Notes under the pieces: model-generated
What the model saw: only the letters and a program-made list of their open reading frames with translations
What the model was told of the DNA's origin: nothing
The model's database searches: none
DNA from: Leucoraja erinacea
Taxonomy: Eukaryota
Reading direction: 5' to 3'
Length of the DNA: 64,000 bases
NCBI RefSeq assembly: GCF_028641065.1
Contig: NC_073384.1
Location: 10,292,001-10,356,000, forward strand
Shown here: positions 8,977 through 61,949 of the stretch, in pieces
Layout: each line of letters starts with the position of its first letter
How positions within the stretch are numbered: position 1 is the first letter of the stretch
Translations under genes and position numbers: made by a program

Positions 8977-9691
8977 AAACCTTAGTGTAAACTGCGGGCC
9001 TATAACGCTGGTCAGCGCCAGACTCGAAAATTTTCAGCGAGCCACCAGGGCCTATTTCTGCACTGTATGTTGTCTAATGCTCTAACAGTCTAAAAAAGTC
9101 TAAAACCATCTAAAAAATATTGCAAGAATCAAGGGATTTCTGTCCAAAGAAGACACTGAAAAACTTGTTCATGCATATATTTTTAGTAGGTTAGATTATT
9201 GTAATGGCATCTTTACAGGTCTCAATAAAAAATCAATTAAACAACTGCAGCTTATCCAAAATGCCGCTGCCAGAGTCTTGACCAACACCAAGAAAATGGA
9301 CCACATTACACCTGTCCTTAAATCTTTGCACTGGCTTCCTGTGTGTAAGAGGATAGATTATAAAATTCTGTTGCTGACCTACAAGACACTGAATGGTCTA
9401 GGTCCAAAATACATCTCTGACCCACTTGTTGTATATGAGGCGCCTAGACTCCTCAGGTCTTAAGGGACAGGTTTACTCTGTGTTCCCAGGGTCAGAACTA
9501 AAAAGGCTGAAGCAGCATTCGGTTTTTATGTTCCACACCTGGGGAACAAGCTCCCTGAACACCTGAGGTGTGCACAGACTGTAAGCGCATTTAAATCAGG
9601 TCTAAAAACACTGTTGTTTACTATAGCTTGTCCATAACCCGACATGCAGGTAATCTTAACCGTCTAATTTTAACCCTTTTATGTGCTTTTA

Positions 9692-12306
9692 CAGTTTTTG
9701 TCAATCGCTTTGACACTAGCTTCAGAACTTTGATGTCATTTTTCACAACTCTAGATACAAAACTCAAAACGGCCACCACTTGTATCACAGGCTGTCCAAC
9801 GTTCAAAACATTGCATTGTGTATTCATATCTTTAAAGAAAGCTTGCACTCACAGAATCATTGGTTCAAACAACTCATTTATCATGAAATCCCATAGGGAC
9901 ATTTCTTTAGATCACCCACACACAACATACACATAGTTTCACTGTTTAGTTGTTCGTACAGCCATTTAATATTGTAGTACAAAATATGTGATACATGTTT
10001 CATCCTGTGCTACACGTAATGTCACTGTAAAAGGATTAGTAGAGAGAATACCACAGACACAGTGGAATCATTGAACAAAGCTGAAATTTATTGATGAATA
10101 CAAACTAAATGACAACATAGGTTGAATGAAAGCAACAATTACTGTAACAAAACAAAAAAAAAGTCCTACAAAACAAACTGCCGTGTTCCTCACCTGGTTA
10201 CTGTACAGTAAGAAAAAAAAGCTAAACAAAGGATCAACAATCACTCGTCATCCCCCATCAACCCTGTCTTGTGGATTGGGCCACAGGTTCTCATCCACAT
10301 CCGCATAGATGTTTTCGTTTGCCAAACATCTTGGAAAGTACCTTCGCGCATGGCGAATCCAGGCCTGACACTGGTCTGCTGTAATGTCATCGCAGGCATT
10401 GTCCATGGCCTGAAGAAGGGTCACTTGTTGATGCGGATGCCGATCATACACTTTCCACCTCCATGTGGAGAAAAATTCCTCAATGGGGTTAAGGAAAGGA
10501 GAGTATGGGGGCAAGTACACAGTGAGGAACTGTGGATGGGCCTGAAACCATGCCTGCACCAGATGAGCGTGGTGGAACCTGACGTTGTCCCACACAATGA
10601 CATAAATTACACCAACAGCTCTACAGACTAGAGTTAGCTCATCAAGAAATGCAATAAGGCGCTCTGCATTATATGCGCCAATCAGAGATCTACGCCCTAC
10701 CACACCATCTTCTGATATCGCCGCACACATACTGATGTTGGCCCCACGTCGTGCAGGTACTTGTATGGTTGCCCGCTGGCCAATTAAATTTCGCCCTCTC
10801 CTCCTTGTCCTGGCCAGGTTGAAGCCTGCCTCATCCACAAAAACAAATTTGTGATGATTTTCATCCGCATCCAGGGCCATCACCCTCTATGTACAAAAAT
10901 ACATGTTGGAAAGAGAATTACTGTACAGTATTGATTACAGTACAATGATGGGGAATTTTTCACAAACAGGCATCATGAAACTGAACATACCTGAACATAC
11001 TCAATCCTCAGTTGCTTCACTCTGTCTGCATTTCTTTCAAAAGGCACACGGTACAACTGTTTGAGGGACACCTGGTGCCTTTTCAGAACACTTGCAATGG
11101 TCGGCAAACTTATGGCTTCCACATTCCTGAAGAGATCTTCATCGTCCAGGATGTTCTGTCTGATTTCTCTAAGCCGAATGTCATTTCTGGCCCGGACCAT
11201 GTTGACCACAGCCCGTTCCTGTTCCTCAGTGAGGAGTCTGCCTCTGCCTCCACTATTGGGTCTAGTCTCAATTCTGTAGGGAATATGACAGGAAGAACAT
11301 GTCATCATACTGTAGAACACATTTTCATAGTCACATTACCTACTCTGTGCTGCACATTGGCATGCAGTGTACAATCATTTGACAATTACAGTAAGAGTAG
11401 CCTACAGTACTGTAATGTTTACTGTAGTGCATGCTGAAGACTTACCGGTTCTCATTGCGGAAAGTTCTAATGATTGAGGCCACGGTTGATCTTTTAAGGT
11501 TTGGTTGTATCATTCTCGCTGCCTCAATCATTGTCATGCCATGATTGATGACATGATCTACAACCATTGCTCTAATCTCATTGGAGACTCTTTGCCGTTG
11601 CTGTCTTGGTCCTTGTCCTCGACCCCGTTCCCCCACACCTCTCAAACGGGGCCCATGGCCACCTCTCAAACGGGGCCCATGGCCACCTCTCAAACGGGGT
11701 GCTTGTCCCCTGCCATTCCTTTGACCACGTCTTCCTCCTCTCCTCCTCTCTCCTTCTCCTACTTGACCTCTATGGTGCCCACCTGCCTGCTCCATGTTGT
11801 ATCACTACAGATGTTGTTGTGGATGTTGTCCACTTACACCCATACCACAAGGTCAGATCAATCATCAGTAACAAATTGGTGTCACAGGTGGTGTCAATCA
11901 TTGTCGTCATCCTGAAACTTTCATGATCTGAACATGCTCATCCTCAGTTTCCATAAGACTATGCTTTAAGAGTAATGCAACAGTTACTTGTCATTTTGAG
12001 CAGTTGTATCAATTGATAGTTAGATTATTGTAATGAAATGAATAGACAGTCATCTCAAATGTAATGTGTGAATTGCATTTTGAAATGGTTATACTTTGAT
12101 GTTAAGTTGTGTCATTTTGAACAGGTGATTATAGTTCAATGGACAAATGATCTTTGGTTTATGTGAATTGTATCCAAGAAATTGGAAAAAGTGTTAGAGT
12201 TTTGCAAAAAGTGCATTTTGATCATTGGTTGTGAGTTTTGTATCTAGAGTTGTGAAAAATGACATCAAGGTTCTGAAACTAGTGTGAAAGCGATTGACAA
12301 AAACTG
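9692..12306 (-). mobile_element. Full-length IS630-Tc1-mariner DNA transposon (2615 bp)
   Basis: TIRs of ~75 bp starting CAGTTTTTGTCAATCGCTTT (9692-9766 vs 12232-12306, 3 mismatches). Flanked by TA at 9690-9691 and 12307-12308. Encodes a DDE transposase. Confidence 0.93.
10248..11795 (-). CDS. Spliced DD35E transposase, 3 exons (11795-11446, 11273-10991, 10886-10248), 423 aa
   Basis: Intron 1 is 11445-11274 (CG|GTAAG...CTACAG|A, phase 2). Intron 2 is 10990-10887 (CAG|GTATGT...CATAG|AGG, phase 0). The joined frame is open: HTH-like N-terminus, FVDEAGF, IVWDNVRFH and LPPYSPFLNPIEEFFS, with 35 residues between the second D and the E. Minus-strand AATAAA at 10087-10092. Confidence 0.88.
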
Positions 12307-13515
12307 TAACAATCGGTTTATTGTTTCATTGAGGTTGTTTTATTATTCATACATTTGTCGTATTGCTTGTTTTGCAATTTTTAATTATTGACTATTTTAT
12401 TTTTTCTTTCCTGTAAAGCACCTTGAATTGCTGTTTGCACGAATGGTGCTATACAAATAAACTTGCCTTGCCTTGCCTTGTCTTGCCTAAAGGTCAGGAA
12501 GTCCAGAAGCCATTTGAACATGGAGGGCCCAAGGCCAAGGTCCAGAAGTTTGGGGATGATCTTATTTGGTATTACAGTGTTGATTCATTCCTCCATCCAA
12601 TACGTCGTGGCCCAATATCTTGTAATTCACTTGATATGGTCATAAGGTCATAAGTGATAGGAGCAGAATTAGGCCATTCAGCACATCAAGTCTATTCTGC
12701 CATTCAATCATGGCTGATCTATCTCTCCCTCTGAACAGCATTCTCCTGCCTTCTGCCCATAACCTCTGACACCCGTACTAATCAAGAATCTATCTATCTT
12801 GGCTTTAAAAATGTGTCACTTCTCCCAAATTATAATTAAAACATAAAGTACATGAAACTGATTGTGTTGATGCACATATATCATTGGGATTATCAAGTGG
12901 ACACCTCCCTTCACTGGTGTTTCGTTGAGTTAAGCCAAGAGCACCTCGGGAAAGCTCAATCCAGTATCCGACTCACAAGGTCAAACTGAAAGGTGGTTTA
13001 CACAGTATAAACCCCCCTGCAGTGATTATATGTGATTCCAGGGTCTGTTTCCACTCTACAGGCATAATTAAGATTGTCCCATTATATACTCTCAGCGGTA
13101 TGTGGGAAAATACGTCTTTCACTGAATCTTAAGTCAGAATCTCTTCTAGGTTGAAGAAAACAAACAGTATTAAAATGGTATGCGAGGGCTGTGAACTGCA
13201 AATGCTATTTTTGTAACTACGTATCTTTGAGGTTGCTTTCAGCCGATCATGAAGAAAACACGCCGGGGCTACTAAATTGTGGCTCTGAGACACATATGGT
13301 TTTGGTTTGGATGGCATGGTAATCATTTCACGTTTTATTTCTGAGACCTCATGGCATGGCGAAGTGTGGAATTTCATGTCCTCTGGGAATGCAGGCAATG
13401 TTAAAGAGCACAAACATTTTTGGCAGATGTATCGATTTGGAAGAAAAATATTAAACCCTGTTTACAAAAAACCGATATATATATATAGTTTTTTTTAAAA
13501 GGGCTTAGTTTCAAA

Positions 13516-14192: not shown

Positions 14193-14551
14193 NNNNNNNN
14201 NNNNNNNNNNNNNNNNNNNNNNNNNNNNNNNNNNNNNNNNNNNNNNNNNNNNNNNNNNNNNNNNNNNNNNNNNNNNNNNNNNNNNNNNNNNNNNNNNNNN
14301 NNNNNNNNNNNNNNNNNNNNNNNNNNNNNNNNNNNNNNNNNNNNNNNNNNNNNNNNNNNNNNNNNNNNNNNNNNNNNNNNNNNNNNNNNNNNNNNNNNNN
14401 NNNNNNNNNNNNNNNNNNNNNNNNNNNNNNNNNNNNNNNNNNNNNNNNNNNNNNNNNNNNNNNNNNNNNNNNNNNNNNNNNNNNNNNNNNNNNNNNNNNN
14501 NNNNNNNNNNNNNNNNNNNNNNNNNNNNNNNNNNNNNNNNNNNNNNNNNNN
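14193..14551. other. Assembly gap
   Basis: Run of N. Confidence 1.
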
Positions 14552-15427: not shown

Positions 15428-16111
15428 CCTAGCTGGAATCAATGATCAGAAGACACTGCCCTTTCTTGAGGGGGTAGGAAAGAACTGCAGATGATGATTT
15501 GAATCGAAGAAAGACACAAAATGCTAGAATAACTCATCGGGACAGGCCGCATCTTTGGAGAGATGTTTCGGGTCGAGACCATTCTCCCTTCTCTCCGGAG
15601 ATGCTGTCTGTCCCGCGGAGTTACTCCAGCATTTTGTGTCTACCTTACTTGAGGGGGGTTTGCGATGAGGCAAAGCGCTAGATGAGAAAAAGTGTGCTTG
15701 AACTTTTCAAGTGCATCTTCGCTGGAATGTTAAAGATGAAGGAATGTTGACATTGTAACTCCCAAGTGACTTCTTGGCGGTTTCCGCTAGTTTCTGTTTA
15801 AGGGCCGTGGGACAATCGCATCTAGTAACACGGCTGCGGGAATCTGAGAACCCAAGGGGGTGGGGGTGGGGGGTGGGGGGGAGGGGGAAGAGAAATAAAA
15901 GTACATCTGGAAAATATACAGCTCCGCCATCTCCGGCGTGTTGGCCACCTGGATCCGCGGACTGGTTGCGCTTGTGAAGATGTTACTCTGAAGAAGCCGA
16001 AACGCCACCCACTCGTTTCCTCCTGAGATGCTGCCTGTCCCGCAGAGCTACTCCAGCTTGTTGTGTCTACCTTCGGTTTAAACCAGCATCTGGAGATCTT
16101 TGTTACACAAG

Positions 16112-17833
16112 ATGCTGCTGCTGCTGCTGCTGCTGTTGATGCTCGGCTCGTTGTCCGCGGTGACTGGGAACCTGCCTCTGCCCTCTCACACGCTGTGCGT
16201 GGCCGATGCGTGTTACACGGCATATCTGCACAGGAAGACCTTCCACCCAGCCTCGGAAAGTTGCAAATACAACGGAGGCAAACTGGCCACCGTCGGGGAC
16301 GCCGGCGAAGACGAGCTGATCCACCGACTCTTGTCCGGGTTCCCCGCCGGCCGGCGGGCGAAGAGTAGGTTCTGGCTGGGGCTGCATCTACCCCCGAGGC
16401 ACTGCTACCAACACCACCGGCCGCTGAGAGGCTTCCAGTGGACGGCCGGGGGAGGGGAGACGGCTTATTCCAACTGGGCGAGGGAGCCTTTGAGCACTTG
16501 CACGGCGCACAGGTGCGTCCACCTAGTGAACAGCTCCAGCCCCGGCGGCGCCAACTACAAGTGGATGGACGGGTCCTGCAGCCACGCTATGGACGGTTAC
16601 CTGTGCAAGTTCAGCTTCAGGGGTATGTGCCCGCGGGTGGAGCTGGGCGGCCCGGGCTCGGTCACCTACACCCCGCCGTTTAGGGCCGAGATCCTCTCCT
16701 CGCCTCTCATCCCCTTCGGTTCCCTGGCGGTCGTATCGTGCGCCGTGGGCTCGCCTGCCCAGGTCTACATGCTGTGCGTGGAACTGGAGCCTCAGAGTTA
16801 CGGCTGGTCGAAGAACGGCTCCTTCTGTCTCCCCGCTTCGGGCTGCGACCTGGACAACGGCGGGTGCGCTCAGATCTGCGTGAGCGGAGAAGGGGGAGAC
16901 GGTGGTGGTGGTGGGGCAGGAGGAGATAGCCACCGGTGCCAGTGCAAGGCTGGGTACCAGCTGGAAGCAGACCAACGCTCCTGTGAGCCGCGGGACCCGT
17001 GCAAGGGCCACCAGTGCCAATTCCAGTGCGTGGGCCACCTGTTGGAGTACCAGTGCGTCTGCCCGTCGGGCTACCGGTTGGCCGGAGACGGACGCAATTG
17101 CGTGGACCTGGACGAGTGCGCCGGTCGCCCCTGCCACCACACCTGCCTCAACACCGACGGTTCCTACCGGTGCCAGTGCAGAGCCGGCTACCGGCTCCAA
17201 GCAGGCGCTCGCTCCTGCGCCGATATCGACGAGTGCGCGTCCAGCCCCTGCCATGGGACTTGCTCCAACACGATGGGCAGCTTCGAGTGTTCCTGCAGTC
17301 CGGGGAGCAAGCTGGGGCAAGACGGAGTGAGCTGTCTCCCGACTGACCGGGCCACCACCCCCCACATCTCGGCCACCACGGTGGGAGACCGGAGTCCCAC
17401 AACACTCGCTCCTCTGGTGCTCCACGCTGTTGACTCGGCCACCCCTCGCCCTGGGACCTCCTCCGCTCAGCCAGAAGAAACCAGAGGTCGTCTCAGGCTC
17501 AGCAGCTTGGCGGCGGAGACGCGTGGCCCGGGCTTGTCCGCCGTTACTTCTCCCAGCTGGGACGGGGACCAGATCCAGGACCGCTCCCCCGGCCTGTCGT
17601 GGTTCCTGAGGGGCGCGCTGGTCTCTGTCGCCGTCCTCCTGCTAGTGCTGTGCGCGGTGGGGTTCACCCTGTGCCTTCGCCACCGGCTGCTCAAGAAGAA
17701 AGAGAGCAACGCCGGGGACTACTACAGCTGGGTTGAAGCGGCGGGACAATCCAAATTCAGGGCTCCGTATGTCAAGTGCAGCCGCTCAAGGGACAACTAC
17801 ATCGAGATCGAAGCCAGTCAAACCGAAGTATAG
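16112..17833 (+). CDS. CD93: CD93 (C1qR1)-like group XIV C-type lectin receptor, single ORF, 573 aa
   Basis: First ATG is at 16112 (the ORF-track start at 16100 is TTG). Domains in order: poly-Leu signal peptide, C-type lectin domain (FWLGL, YSNW, C-x-DGYLC), sushi-like segment, 4 EGF repeats (two Ca-binding, DLDEC/DIDEC), S/T/P-rich stalk, TM helix. The cytoplasmic KKKESNAGDYYSWVE resembles the CD93 tail. Lies upstream of THBD on the same strand, as in human. Confidence 0.9.
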   Translation: MLLLLLLLLMLGSLSAVTGNLPLPSHTLCVADACYTAYLHRKTFHPASESCKYNGGKLATVGDAGEDELIHRLLSGFPAGRRAKSRFWLGLHLPPRHCYQHHRPLRGFQWTAGGGETAYSNWAREPLSTCTAHRCVHLVNSSSPGGANYKWMDGSCSHAMDGYLCKFSFRGMCPRVELGGPGSVTYTPPFRAEILSSPLIPFGSLAVVSCAVGSPAQVYMLCVELEPQSYGWSKNGSFCLPASGCDLDNGGCAQICVSGEGGDGGGGGAGGDSHRCQCKAGYQLEADQRSCEPRDPCKGHQCQFQCVGHLLEYQCVCPSGYRLAGDGRNCVDLDECAGRPCHHTCLNTDGSYRCQCRAGYRLQAGARSCADIDECASSPCHGTCSNTMGSFECSCSPGSKLGQDGVSCLPTDRATTPHISATTVGDRSPTTLAPLVLHAVDSATPRPGTSSAQPEETRGRLRLSSLAAETRGPGLSAVTSPSWDGDQIQDRSPGLSWFLRGALVSVAVLLLVLCAVGFTLCLRHRLLKKKESNAGDYYSWVEAAGQSKFRAPYVKCSRSRDNYIEIEASQTEV

Positions 17834-28498: not shown

Positions 28499-28576
28499 TT
28501 CAGGGAGAAATCGGGACCAGAGAGGAAAGGGGGGGCTTCAGAGCGGACCAAGCCTGAAGGGACAGACACAGAGAGT

Positions 28577-28607
<31 letters not shown>
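28577..28607. repeat. (GA)n microsatellite immediately before the THBD start codon
   Basis: Seen directly in the sequence. Confidence 0.95.
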
Positions 28608-28608
<1 letters not shown>

Positions 28609-28610
<2 letters not shown>

Positions 28611-30246
28611 GATTGTGGTTTGGGTCGCCCTTTGCGCTTTGGCGTCCACGGCGCTTTCTGAATCGCAGGACGAGGAAGAGCCGACGCCGGCCGTCTGTGT
28701 GGACGGTTTCTGCTACGCTTTGCGGAGGGAGCGCAGGAAGTTTAACATGGCCCGGAGCGCCTGCAAGAAGGACGGGGGAGACGCGGTGACCGTGCGGACC
28801 ACGGTGGCGGCCGATGCCGTCTCGGCGCTGCTGCAGGCGGCCGGCGCTCAGCCCAACTCCCGCTACTGGCTGGGGCTGCAACTCCACCACAAGACGTGCC
28901 CCGACAACAGCAGCCTCTTGCGGGGCTACCGCTGGGTGGACGGGGACAGCGACACGACCCACTACACCAACTGGGCTCCGGCGACGGGCTCCACCTGCGG
29001 ACCCCACTGCGTGGTGGTCTCCAGCGACGAGCTGTGGCTGGAACGGCCGTGCAACGAGAAGACGGACGGGGTGCTGTGCGAATACCGCTACAACGGCAGC
29101 TGCCCCAGCCTGGCCAACCGCACCGCCGTCTACCACCTGCCCTTCGGCTCGCAGGGCTCGGACTTCTCCGCGCTGCCCCCTGGCACCGTGGCCCTGGTCA
29201 GCGCGGGCGAGGAGCCGCTGAGATGCAACGAAAGTCGGGACTGGCTGCCCGTGGGCACGGCTCCTTGGCAATGCCGGGTGGGGAACGGAGGTTGCCAGCA
29301 CGTTTGCCACGACGGGCCGCCGCCGGCTTGCAGCTGCCACCCGGGGTACCGGTTGGACGGGGACCAGCGGAGCTGCAGCGAGATAAGCCCATGCGATGGG
29401 GTGAGGTGCGATCATCGCTGCGAGGTGCGGAACGGCTCGCCGGTCTGCTTCTGCGATGCCGGCTACCAGCTGGACTCCGACCACAAGGGCTGTTTGGACG
29501 TGGACGAGTGTGTGCGGAATCCCTGCCAACAGACGTGCAATAACTCAATGGGGAGCTACACATGCAGCTGCTCCAGCGGCTACCGGCTGGTCGAGGACGG
29601 CAAATGCATGGACATCAACGAGTGCATGGAATACAATCCGTGCCAGTTCGACTCTTGCGGCAACACGCAGGGAAGTTTCACTTGCTCCTGCAAGAGCGGC
29701 TTCCAGACGGATCCTGCGGACCACACCAAGTGCGTCTTCTATTGCAAATCCAAGGAGTGCCCGGCCATATGCCTCGGTATCAGCTGTCACTGCCCGCCCG
29801 ATTACATTCTCAACGACGACACGGGGACCTGCCACTACTTTGGGGACAACGACGCTCCAGCCCACCCCTGCATCCCCACCTCCAGCGGCGCCAAGTGCCA
29901 ATGCGAGGACGGCTACCAACCGTCTGAAGACGGGGCCACATGCGAGATGGAAGAAAGCTCCGGCTCTCCCCCGTCTGACGGCCCCATTGCCACCGACGAA
30001 CCAAAGGGCCTGGCCAGAGCCGGCTTGTCCTTGGCGGTTGTCCTCGGCAGCCTGTTCGCCATCGCCGTGCTGACTTTGATCTTCGCCGGGGTGGGACACC
30101 ACCTGCTCAAGAAAAGGGGCAATTGGCAGACGTCCACCAAGTACAAGGCGACCAGCCAGGAGCAAGACGTGAATCTCAGCCAGGTCACCACTGGCGATGA
30201 TCAGAAACTGCGGTACACCAACGACATTTGCAACGCGGGGACCTGA
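28609..30246 (+). CDS. THBD: Thrombomodulin, single ORF, 545 aa
   Basis: Signal peptide, C-type lectin domain (YWLGLQL, YTNW, DGVLCEY), sushi-like region, EGF repeats including the thrombomodulin-type EGF5 (CPAIC...CHCPPDYILNDD), short Ser-Gly stalk, TM helix and cytoplasmic tail. Lies between CD93 and the SSTR gene. Confidence 0.9.
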
Positions 30247-37014: not shown

Positions 37015-37204
37015 NNNNNNNNNNNNNNNNNNNNNNNNNNNNNNNNNNNNNNNNNNNNNNNNNNNNNNNNNNNNNNNNNNNNNNNNNNNNNNNNNNNNNN
37101 NNNNNNNNNNNNNNNNNNNNNNNNNNNNNNNNNNNNNNNNNNNNNNNNNNNNNNNNNNNNNNNNNNNNNNNNNNNNNNNNNNNNNNNNNNNNNNNNNNNN
37201 NNNN
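37015..37204. other. Assembly gap
   Basis: Run of N. Confidence 1.
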
Positions 37205-41494: not shown

Positions 41495-41715
41495 NNNNNN
41501 NNNNNNNNNNNNNNNNNNNNNNNNNNNNNNNNNNNNNNNNNNNNNNNNNNNNNNNNNNNNNNNNNNNNNNNNNNNNNNNNNNNNNNNNNNNNNNNNNNNN
41601 NNNNNNNNNNNNNNNNNNNNNNNNNNNNNNNNNNNNNNNNNNNNNNNNNNNNNNNNNNNNNNNNNNNNNNNNNNNNNNNNNNNNNNNNNNNNNNNNNNNN
41701 NNNNNNNNNNNNNNN
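41495..41715. other. Assembly gap
   Basis: Run of N. Confidence 1.
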
Positions 41716-58653: not shown

Positions 58654-59805
58654 TCATAGCGTGGTGGTTCTGGAGCTGCATGTCCCATTCCGACAGAGCG
58701 GGTGAGAAGCAGGGTTGCCGGGCTGACATTCTATGGGATTACACAGCCTGCCCTTCAGGGCGGTGGCGTAATAGTCCACCGGCTCCTCGCTCCCGTTCTC
58801 CAGCCAACGGAAACACAGGATCCTCTGGAAGGACCTCCTGAAATTGTCCGAGAGGAAACCGTAGAGGAAAGGGTTGGCGCAGCTGTTGGCGTAGCTGAGG
58901 ATAAGGCACAGCTGGTTGACCGTGGAGTGGAGGGGGAGAAAGATGTTGGCCAGCTGCACCACGTAGAAGGGCATCCAGCAGATGACAAACACGGCCACCA
59001 CCATCAGGACCATGCCGGTGAGTTTCTTCTCCGACCTCCTGCGCTGCTGCCAGCCCGCCTTCAGGGCGACCACCCTCATCTTCACCACGATCAGGACGTA
59101 GCACAGGCAGATGGCGAAGACGGGGATGAGGAAGCCGAGCAGGGAGGTGTAGATGACAAACGCCACGGACCAGGAGCGATGAGGCCAGAGGAAGTTGCAG
59201 TGGACCACACCGTCCTCGCTGGGAGCGGTGCCGGCGAATATAATGATGGGCAAGATGACAATGAGCGACAAGACCCAGACGCAGATGTTGATGACCTTGG
59301 CGATAGTGGGTCTCCTGTACCTCGCCGCTTTGATGGGGTGCACCACGGCCACGTACCTGTCCACGCTCAACACGGTGAGGCAGAAGACGCTGGTGAACTG
59401 GTTGATCCCATCCACGCTGAGCACCGTCCGGCACATGAGCGAGCCGAAGGGCCAGCGCTGCAGGGCGGCCGAGGCGGACAGGAACGGGACGCTCAGCATG
59501 AAGAGCTCGTCGGCGATGGCCAGGTTGAGGATGTAGATGTTGGTGGCCGTCTTCATCTTGGCGTACCTGAGGATGACGAAGATCACCATGGCGTTGCCCA
59601 CCAGCCCCACCAGGCACACGACGGCAGAGATGAACTGGATCACCACCGTCCCGGCGTCTCTCTCCTCCTCCTCCTCCTCCTCCCCGAGCGAGTAGTTCAG
59701 GGGGAGAGCGGTGACAAAATCCGCCGACTCGCCGGAGCTGTTCCATGAGCCCATCTCCGCTGCTGTGTCCCGGTGTGAAGGCAACTGGAAACTACGCGTG
59801 TTCAT
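58654..59805 (-). CDS. SSTR4: Somatostatin receptor (class A GPCR), most likely SSTR4, 383 aa
   Basis: ATG at 59805 (ORF-track start 59811 is TTG). Seven TM segments with [52 protein letters not shown], the SSTR signature [18 protein letters not shown], and [12 protein letters not shown] (SSTR1/4 group). SSTR4 is preferred over SSTR1 because of the convergent position next to THBD. Confidence 0.85.
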
Positions 59806-61949
59806 ATTCAATCAGCACCTTCACCGGTAGCACCTCTCCTCTCCTCTCATCTCCTCTCCTCTCCTCTCCTTCACTCCCCCCCTCACCCCCTTCCTCCCTA
59901 TGACAGGTCTTCAAAGAAAATTATCTCCCCTTCGCTTCTCCCGTCACCTTCTCTGTCTCCTCTTCAGCCTCTTGCTTGGCAAACCAAGATTCCAGCCATC
60001 AGACGGGATCAGAGCGCAAGAGCTTGCAACAGCTAGGACTCACGACCGTGTGTGTGTCTGTGTGTGTGTGTGTGTGCATCTTTTATGCAGTGCGGTTGCT
60101 TTCGTTGTTCGCTTCGGCTTGCTCCTTAAATACAAGACCTGATGAATGAACAACAGTCGGCGACCTACCTATAGTCCTGCGTCATCCACTCAACAGTGTG
60201 CTGTCTTGAATCTTTAAAAACTTGAACTAATCGCACGGCGGATAAATATGCAATATGCCCCTTTCATTTTGCAAGGGAGTCAGGTGGATCTGCCAAATGC
60301 AGAAAATAGAGATGCTTTCATCTGATCGGACACTTGTTAAGGTCGAAAGACAATGTTTTCACATGGGGGGAGTACTGTCGTTGAAAATTGGGCTTTAAAG
60401 TGGCAGTGACAGGTACCCCAAGAAGGACAGGTCTAGATCTTAGAACATAGAACATTACAGCATGGGAACAGGCCCTTCAGCCCACAATATTTGTGCTCGA
60501 CATGGCGTCAAGGCAAATTCTTCTGGGAAGATTTTAATCATGCATGCATTAGCGTGTATTCTGGAATTCAAACTTTCCAAAACAATATGATAGGGGCATG
60601 TTGCATATTTATCCACCCTTGCGATTAGTTCTAAGGATTCAAGACAGCACGCTGTTGAGTGAATGTGCTGGCTCTGGCGAGGGTCCAGAGGAGGTTTACA
60701 AGAATGGTCCCAAGAATGAGTACAAGACCGAAGAAGTCTGAAGAAGTGTCTCGGTCCGAAACGTCGCTTATTTCCTTCACTCCATAGATGCTGCCTCACC
60801 TGTTGAGTTTCTCCAGCATTTTTGTCATTCGCTGTAGTTTAGAAGAATGAGAAGGGGCCTCATAGAAACATAGAGAATAGTGAAAGGCTTGGATAGAGTG
60901 GATGTGATGAGGATGTTTCCATTAGTGGGAGAATCTAAAGCTAGAGGTCATAGCCTCAGAATTAAAGGACGTTATTTTAGGAAGGAGATGAGGAGAAATG
61001 TCTTTAGTCAGAGGGTGGTGAATCTGTGGAATTATTTGCCGAAGAAGGCTCTAGAGGCCATGTCAATGGATATTTTTAAGGCAGATATAGATAGATTCTT
61101 GATTAGTATTGGTGTCAGGGCTATGGGGAGAAGGCAGGAGAATGAGGTGAGACTGGAGAGATAGATCAGCCGCGATTGAATGGTGAGCAGACTTGATGGA
61201 CTGAATGGCCTTATTCTGCTGCTATCTCATAGCCTTATGACCTTATGAACAGTTCTAGGATTTGTGACATGAATATGTCTATTTTTTATTCTATCTCACT
61301 TGACCTTTTCTCTCATGGTAATTGAAGAATTGCCAAGGTTGGGTGTAAAGCAAAGCTGAAGTTTGAATTGTGTATGAATTTATTTTTAAACAATTTCATT
61401 GGTTTTCAAGCTTCAGATCTTGCAGTGCATGACGTGGCTCTTTGAAGTGATTGAAAGTCTCAGTGCACAGTAGTTTTAGCAACTTGTAAATAACCTTAAA
61501 ACCAATTTCTAAACTTGTCTGAGTTTCATTTGTTGCTGGAGGGAACCTATCCCAACTGGATATGTGCAGGCTAAATCCGCAGGTAAATGTCAACAATGAC
61601 ATTAAATGCTCCTGAAAACGGCTCCACACTTTAAGCAATGAGGCATTAACAACTTAGAGCTGTCTTGTTGCTCCACGATTTTATACGTTTTCTGAAAATA
61701 ATTGTCATATGCAACAATGTTCATTTGTGATATGGAAATATATAGCTGTAGAATATGCAGATACAGCCCTTTGGTGCTATAATTAGAGCCACAGTATCAG
61801 AGAGCATAGAAGCAGGCCATTCTGCCCCACTAGTCGATACCAACAAAGATGCTCTATCCACGTAAGTCTCATCTGCCCGCATTTGGCATATCCCTCTAAA
61901 CCTTTCCTCCATGTACCTGTGCAAATGTGTTTTAAATGTTGTTATAGTA

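Follow-up and report, generated by a model that had tools for sequence, protein, structure and literature searches.

Anatomy and surroundings of the element

The window, the whole 64,000-nucleotide stretch of DNA analysed here, contains a transposon of 2,615 bp at positions 9692-12306 that has CAG at both termini and TA on either side. Its terminal inverted repeats (TIRs) are identical at 75 of 79 bases (94.9%, E 2e-30) and at 72 of 75 over the outermost 75 bases, which bears out the first-pass annotation of a TA-flanked element with TIRs of about 75 bp. The transposase gene lies on the minus strand in three exons, and the features of the element and of the repeat beside it are as follows.

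9104..9637, plus strand: end of a decayed LINE ORF2, without a Pfam match
9690..9691: TA target-site duplication, 3' side of the gene
9692..9770: TIR, 79 bp, 3' end of the element, 75/79 match to the other TIR
10087..10092, minus strand: candidate polyadenylation signal AATAAA (motif match only)
10248..10886, minus strand: exon 3, aa 212-423, DDE catalytic domain
10887..10990, minus strand: intron 2, 104 bp, GTATGT...ACATAG, phase 0
10991..11273, minus strand: exon 2, aa 117-211, comprising a GGRGR linker, a RED-like second helix-turn-helix and the beginning of a long helix
11274..11445, minus strand: intron 1, 172 bp, GTAAGT...CTACAG, phase 2
11446..11795, minus strand: exon 1, aa 1-117, Arg/Gly-rich tail, then first helix-turn-helix (PAI-like)
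11636..11699, minus strand: 24-bp tandem repeat, 2.7 copies, within the Arg/Gly tail
11989-12006 and 12110-12127: two sub-terminal copies of a TIR-internal motif, present at the 5' end only
12228..12306: TIR, 5' end of the element
12307..12308: TA target-site duplication, 5' side of the gene

The sub-terminal motif copies are possible extra binding sites for the transposase. A short palindromic motif, TACAGTA/TACTGTA, is repeated in each of the two introns and again in the 3' UTR near 10200. Neither a second copy of the element nor a MITE was found within the 64-kb window.

The transposon apparently sits inside the 3' UTR of the older LINE fragment at 9104-9637, which we take to be teleost L2-like, and the LINE tail resumes at about 12309-12485; no empty LINE site, that is, a copy lacking the transposon, was present in the window. 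The LINE fragment and the transposon are possibly both transferred elements, one inserted into the other. Beyond the LINE tail lie another LINE-like remnant (~12490-12585, minus strand) and a dispersed SINE- or LINE-tail-like repeat (~12630-12820) that is matched at up to 15 other places in the window. The other LINE remnants of the window are presumably shark-type CR1. Three assembly gaps (runs of N at 14193-14551, 37015-37204 and 41495-41715) leave the element untouched.

Three host genes, each a long single ORF, share the window: a CD93-like lectin/EGF protein (16082-17833, plus strand), a thrombomodulin-like protein (28558-30246, plus strand) and a somatostatin receptor (58654-59811, minus strand) with best PDB matches to SSTR1 and then SSTR4. 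The CD93 label is a probable one, based on domain layout, and the trio presumably corresponds to the tetrapod THBD-CD93-SSTR4 block. The best matches to exon 3 were two gene models of the thorny skate Amblyraja radiata, at 96-97% identity, which represent clusters of 11 and 9 sequences. These matches give good support to a skate-like host, in keeping with the elasmobranch host proposed in the first-pass annotation.

A transposase gene split by two introns

Three seemingly separate ORFs had been joined in the first-pass annotation into one 423-aa frame through GT-AG introns of 172 and 104 bp with matching phases. This structure was confirmed: the three joined minus-strand exons read through 423 aa without an internal stop, and the junction residues fit those of relatives. 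An open frame by itself cannot fix the junctions, because 8 of 60 nearby GT-AG combinations also stay open; the originally proposed set is the combination whose junction residues match relatives without gaps. With intron 1 unspliced the frame stops immediately after aa 117, and with intron 2 retained it stops after aa 216, so that a working enzyme needs both splices, as had been claimed. The further claim that no stop or frameshift remains held for stops and failed for frameshifts, since the G run at 10256-10252 has one additional base relative to the frame of both skate gene models. Because of this extra G the protein ends in GG instead of GDDE. Lying near the stop codon, the extra base may reflect either a mutation or an error in the assembly.

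The catalytic triad is formed by D229 (10835-10833), D311 (10589-10587) and E347 (10481-10479), with 35 residues separating the second D from the E, the spacing that defines DD35E. Exon 3 matched Pfam DDE_3 (E 5e-25), while the matches of exon 1 to HTH_SB (E 0.0016) and of exon 2 to HTH_32 (E 0.001) were below the cut-off. The NCBIfam IS630 profile NF033545 scored 101.4 bits against a cut-off of 100, and the earlier assignment to IS630-like DD35E elements of the IS630-Tc1-mariner (ITm) superfamily stands. In a profile built from 60 relatives the exon-1 part matched the PAI subdomain of Sleeping Beauty (E 2.5e-5), exons 1-2 matched Pax paired domains, and the catalytic domains of Sleeping Beauty and Mos1 were matched as well.

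The AlphaFold model that we used represents P0022, a relative sharing about 60% identity with the window protein, rather than the window protein itself. Its mean pLDDT is 81.6 and its pTM 0.63; it consists of two bundles of three helices each and a DDE fold, plus a disordered tail, and its best structural match was Mos1 (E 7e-14). Junction 1 falls directly after the first bundle and junction 2 falls within helix 168-186. The hallmarks of ITm elements found here are TIRs with a TA target duplication and a paired-like two-helix-turn-helix region joined to an RNase H-like DDE domain, the fold being that of P0022.

Intron positions across relatives

To place the junctions among relatives, 333 proteins from the relative searches were aligned to the spliced window protein. 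Junction 1 was crossed without insertion by 65 of 142 named gene models and junction 2 by 102 of 142, the remainder being mostly partial or gapped. These models are not independent evidence, because protein homology can drive them; unspliced ORF calls are more independent. Among 87 unspliced exon-1 ORFs, 70 stop within 4 aa of junction 1, one crosses it and 16 end earlier. Similarly, 46 of 61 unspliced DDE ORFs begin within 4 aa of junction 2; the others carry a 24-39-aa in-frame insert at that junction (four), cross it cleanly (four), are gapped (one) or start elsewhere (six). The length filters of the searches bias these counts toward partial ORFs and do not set the position of the breaks. 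ORF scans therefore fragment the gene at the very junctions where these unspliced calls break, as the first-pass annotation had anticipated. The skate model P0121 has an identical junction 2, and NCBI automatic gene models already include the exons.

Three intron-free ORFs, P0022, P0212 and P0230, have relatives 93-96% identical to them that start at or retain intron 2. This suggests spliced transcripts as the simplest reading of the intron-free forms, which could also be intron-less genomic copies. Exon 1 is conserved as protein, and the intron-derived stretches vary freely between subfamilies. Judged from these alignments, the introns are common to the whole family, teleost relatives included, and the novelty first suggested for them falls away. 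The Arg/Gly repeat tail was rejected as a novelty too: it is common to teleost relatives, with 0-8 copies of a short peptide motif.

In the set of 43 distant relatives, most of which are unspliced calls and, where scorable, DD34E, the frames run largely contiguously across both positions, which suggests that both introns were acquired at the root of the vertebrate DD35E clade; the long-ORF search by which such relatives were found is biased toward intron-less ones. As a separate observation, seven models (P0064, P0066, P0068, P0069, P0071, P0074 and P0078) have the DDE exon fused to a domain of another kind (Ig, trypsin, TRIM, kinase or lectin). Annotation errors, or exon capture via the splice acceptor of the element, may account for such fusions.

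Our literature search, whose coverage left out most subscription journals, returned no description of introns in this clade, and the accessible portions of PMC9341512 and PMC8533490 contain nothing on them.

Clade placement and probable horizontal transfer

Quick trees were built from 71 rows and from 22 rows picked after the first tree had been viewed. In the 71-row tree the skate rows are nested, with support of 100, in a 44-row DD35E clade of teleost, bichir, frog, hagfish and skate rows, and are sister to mainly cypriniform rows. The clade adjoins DD34E relatives, of which unnamed and fungal rows are the nearest outgroups, and lies apart from bacterial IS630; this tree held no named Hiker, Gambol or Tc1 reference. 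Across the aligned parts the window protein is 82-89% identical to its teleost relatives, and in the 22-row quick tree teleost monophyly was weakly rejected (p-AU 0.041). Horizontal transfer involving the skate subfamily is likely on this sequence evidence, and the nesting of skates among teleosts could also come from old paralogous subfamilies.

Rows from a hagfish (P0192, Myxine), a frog (P0178, Aquarana) and a bichir (P0221, Polypterus) are likewise nested among teleost subfamilies, a pattern that suggests further horizontal transfers. To our knowledge, hagfishes do not figure in the described host range of Hiker.

Relation to Hiker

The Hiker family, in the 2023 study of Shi and colleagues, is said to measure 2.1-3.7 kb, to have a TA duplication and TIRs of 16-30 bp, and to occur in ray-finned fishes and frogs; it reportedly encodes a single ORF of about 370 aa and is likely inactive owing to truncated DNA-binding domains. 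The window element resembles this description in its DD35E triad, its TA duplication and its length. It differs in having three exons rather than a single ORF, TIRs of 79 bp rather than 16-30 bp, and, after splicing, a complete two-helix-turn-helix domain where Hiker DNA-binding domains are reportedly mostly truncated. We class the window element as a variant of Hiker as described, since the single-ORF description may itself be an artefact of annotation.

Two published data sets, each consulted in part, bear on this identity. In the accessible part of PMC13469147, Hiker/DD35E is placed beside Gambol and Dici. In the supplement of PMC12400950, the 30 of 33 Hiker rows available map Hiker representatives to Repbase Mariner families, with two rows mapping to TcMar-ISRm11. 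Matches reach 98-100% to Mariner-3_DR, Mariner-1_GA, Mariner-36_SSa and Mariner-7_XT. Taken with the tree placement, this grouping and this mapping make it very probable that the clade is Hiker (RepeatMasker TcMar-ISRm11). The same 30 rows include a representative named HKAmbrad, which we read, by the naming pattern, as Amblyraja radiata. A skate member is probably already catalogued, and the skate host is therefore probably not new.

The same sources led us to suspect that published Hiker proteins were read straight through the introns. In Supplementary Data 8B of PMC13469147, as far as it was available, the three references HK-Anagra, HK-Labcat and HK-Sanluc are listed with a length of 372 aa and a single contiguous interval of 1,116 bp apiece. 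One relative in our set, P0011 (48 cluster members), is an unspliced ORF of exactly this length, composed of a 31-aa leader, exon 2, 31 aa of in-frame retained intron 2, and exon 3, and it is without the first helix-turn-helix. In P0324 a nearly identical leader sequence is located in intron 1, behind a normal exon 1. Within the P0011 subfamily, sequences from Labeo, Cirrhinus, Sarotherodon, Oreochromis and Micropterus share 95-99% identity, which fits the finding of one length in three distant fishes. The length match alone is modest evidence, because the Gambol reference GM-Anoara in the same table is likewise 372 aa in 1,116 bp.

Other representatives may amount to a lone exon 3. Half of the available PMC12400950 rows (15/30) align from the query start over just 486-672 nt, and three near-perfect rows span 648, 654 and 672 nt, lengths close to that of exon 3. 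For Repbase Mariner-3_DR the Hiker match covers 1399-2052, coinciding with exon 3 of the window element at element positions 1421-2059. Such short representatives may be deliberate extracts of the DDE domain, and Repbase entries may already annotate the exons. Published Hiker protein models, in the portions available, appear to ignore the introns, and this is the weightier implication that the first-pass annotation had missed.

Missed introns would explain both the reported single ORF of about 370 aa and the reported truncation and inactivity, and the latter may be a splicing oversight. A wider proposal is that a complete transposase of three exons, so far unrecorded, is encoded throughout the vertebrate Hiker clade, that the published single-ORF proteins are unspliced read-throughs or lone exons, and that the reported truncation and inactivity are artefacts; we regard this as a real possibility that falls somewhat short of probable.

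Comparison with other families

The window element is like bacterial IS630 in that its protein passes the NF033545 cut-off and matches plasmid IS630 proteins at 26-35% identity among the 15 matches listed, but it belongs to a separate clade, has spliceosomal introns and resides in a eukaryotic host. Relatives of the DD34E type, to which Gambol and Dici belong, have largely contiguous ORFs across both junction positions, in contrast to the DD35E window element; hosts on the DD34E side are invertebrates (for Gambol) and fungi, as opposed to the vertebrate host here. Split transposase genes are known elsewhere in the superfamily, as the Tc1, Tc3 and pogo genes also contain introns. The Minos gene, like that of the window element, is interrupted, having two exons and a 60-bp intron according to the accessible part of PMC2874221, but Minos has one intron, another clade and triad, and invertebrate hosts.

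State of the window copy

The residue at position 178 of the window protein, in the second helix-turn-helix region of exon 2, is Ser (codon 11092-11090), whereas 93 of 102 aligned relatives have Arg. The window protein differs from the skate models P0121 and P0120 at 9 of 306 and 7 of 211 residues, respectively. The copy is young and well preserved, and the earlier call of a young element holds in the sense of fairly young. It is also slightly decayed, and is an ordinary insertion.

Alternative explanations

Our preferred reading, which we hold with considerable confidence, is that the element is a cut-and-paste, IS630-related vertebrate DD35E transposon whose transposase depends on the splicing of two clade-ancestral introns. 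Compatible with it, and somewhat favoured by us, is the view that the family is spliced yet this copy, and perhaps the skate subfamily, is a dead relic no longer able to transpose. The Ser at position 178, where Arg is nearly invariant in alignment A1, argues for this, together with the one-base 3' insertion, the four TIR mismatches, five substitutions relative to P0121 (three of which also differ from P0120) and the absence of exon 1 from both skate gene models. On the other hand, 1,272 coding bases are free of stops, the triad and splice sites are intact, the skate siblings are 97% identical, and the insertion changes just the final residues of a variable tail. That this copy is still active seems doubtful from its sequence, and the first-pass suggestion that it is possibly still functional is weakened by the Arg178 to Ser change, the terminal insertion and the TIR mismatches.

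Preference for the spliced gene rests on what each competing account leaves unexplained. Were the family to work as an unspliced single ORF, of about 372 aa or exon 3 alone, with incidental introns, one would expect frames open through intron 2, as in P0011, P0012, P0025, P0143, P0153 and P0189, and contiguous references such as the three 372-aa Hiker proteins in the available part of the published table; yet the unspliced frame of the window stops early, the 372-aa form is without the first helix-turn-helix and carries an insert in mid-helix, and exon 1 is conserved as protein while intron-derived stretches are free to differ. We consider this account improbable. Slightly less credible still is a host gene domesticated from a transposase, or an assembly contaminated with teleost DNA. 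Domestication can be marked by an intact, intron-bearing frame, and the teleost-like look of the closest non-skate relatives and of the surrounding LINE fragment would fit contamination. Both were rejected, since TIRs are intact at both ends with a TA duplication, at least two other skate loci are 97% identical, and the window is contiguous, with vertebrate genes and LINE remnants that are presumably of shark type. Least credible of all is Traveler (DD35E/TR) or another Tc1-derived family, for which the DD35E spacing, the TA duplication and the vertebrate host would be suitable. According to the accessible part of PMC7093834, Traveler measures about 1.5 kb (1,072-2,191 bp), encodes 304-350 aa in a single ORF, is bounded by 13-68-bp TIRs and has Tc1 as its closest relative. 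The 2.6 kb, 423 aa and 79-bp TIRs of the window element fall outside these ranges, and P0022 barely matches Sleeping Beauty (E 0.094) yet passes the IS630 cut-off; Traveler was rejected on size, ORF and TIR ranges as so reported, and on an affinity to IS630 rather than Tc1.

Proposed mechanism and significance

In the spliced-transposase reading, host splicing would remove the two introns to yield a complete enzyme, in which the Arg/Gly tail and first helix-turn-helix would come from exon 1, the linker and second helix-turn-helix from exon 2, and the DDE domain from exon 3. By analogy with the Mos1 and Sleeping Beauty fold and with Tc1/mariner biochemistry, this spliced enzyme would attach to the TIRs, cut the element out and reinsert it at TA. 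The skate subfamily probably arrived via horizontal transfer involving ray-finned fishes and would have been amplified fairly recently, the window copy having apparently begun to decay.

The skate element is a good example of a known family, and its value lies in exposing the gene structure. The new point is one of annotation: a conserved three-exon structure was seemingly missed in the family description. If that structure is the norm, the published models of Hiker proteins, the trees drawn from full-length sequences and the assays that found no activity have to be done again. Active members are plausible, given that one subfamily shows 95-99% identity between carp, cichlid and bass lineages. 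If the wider proposal is true, Hiker would be an IS630-like vertebrate family that is young, has been transferred widely, depends on splicing and is probably active, and it would be a potential source of transposon tools. It would also be a vertebrate ITm clade that has carried two introns through repeated horizontal transfers and has been missed by ORF-based surveys.
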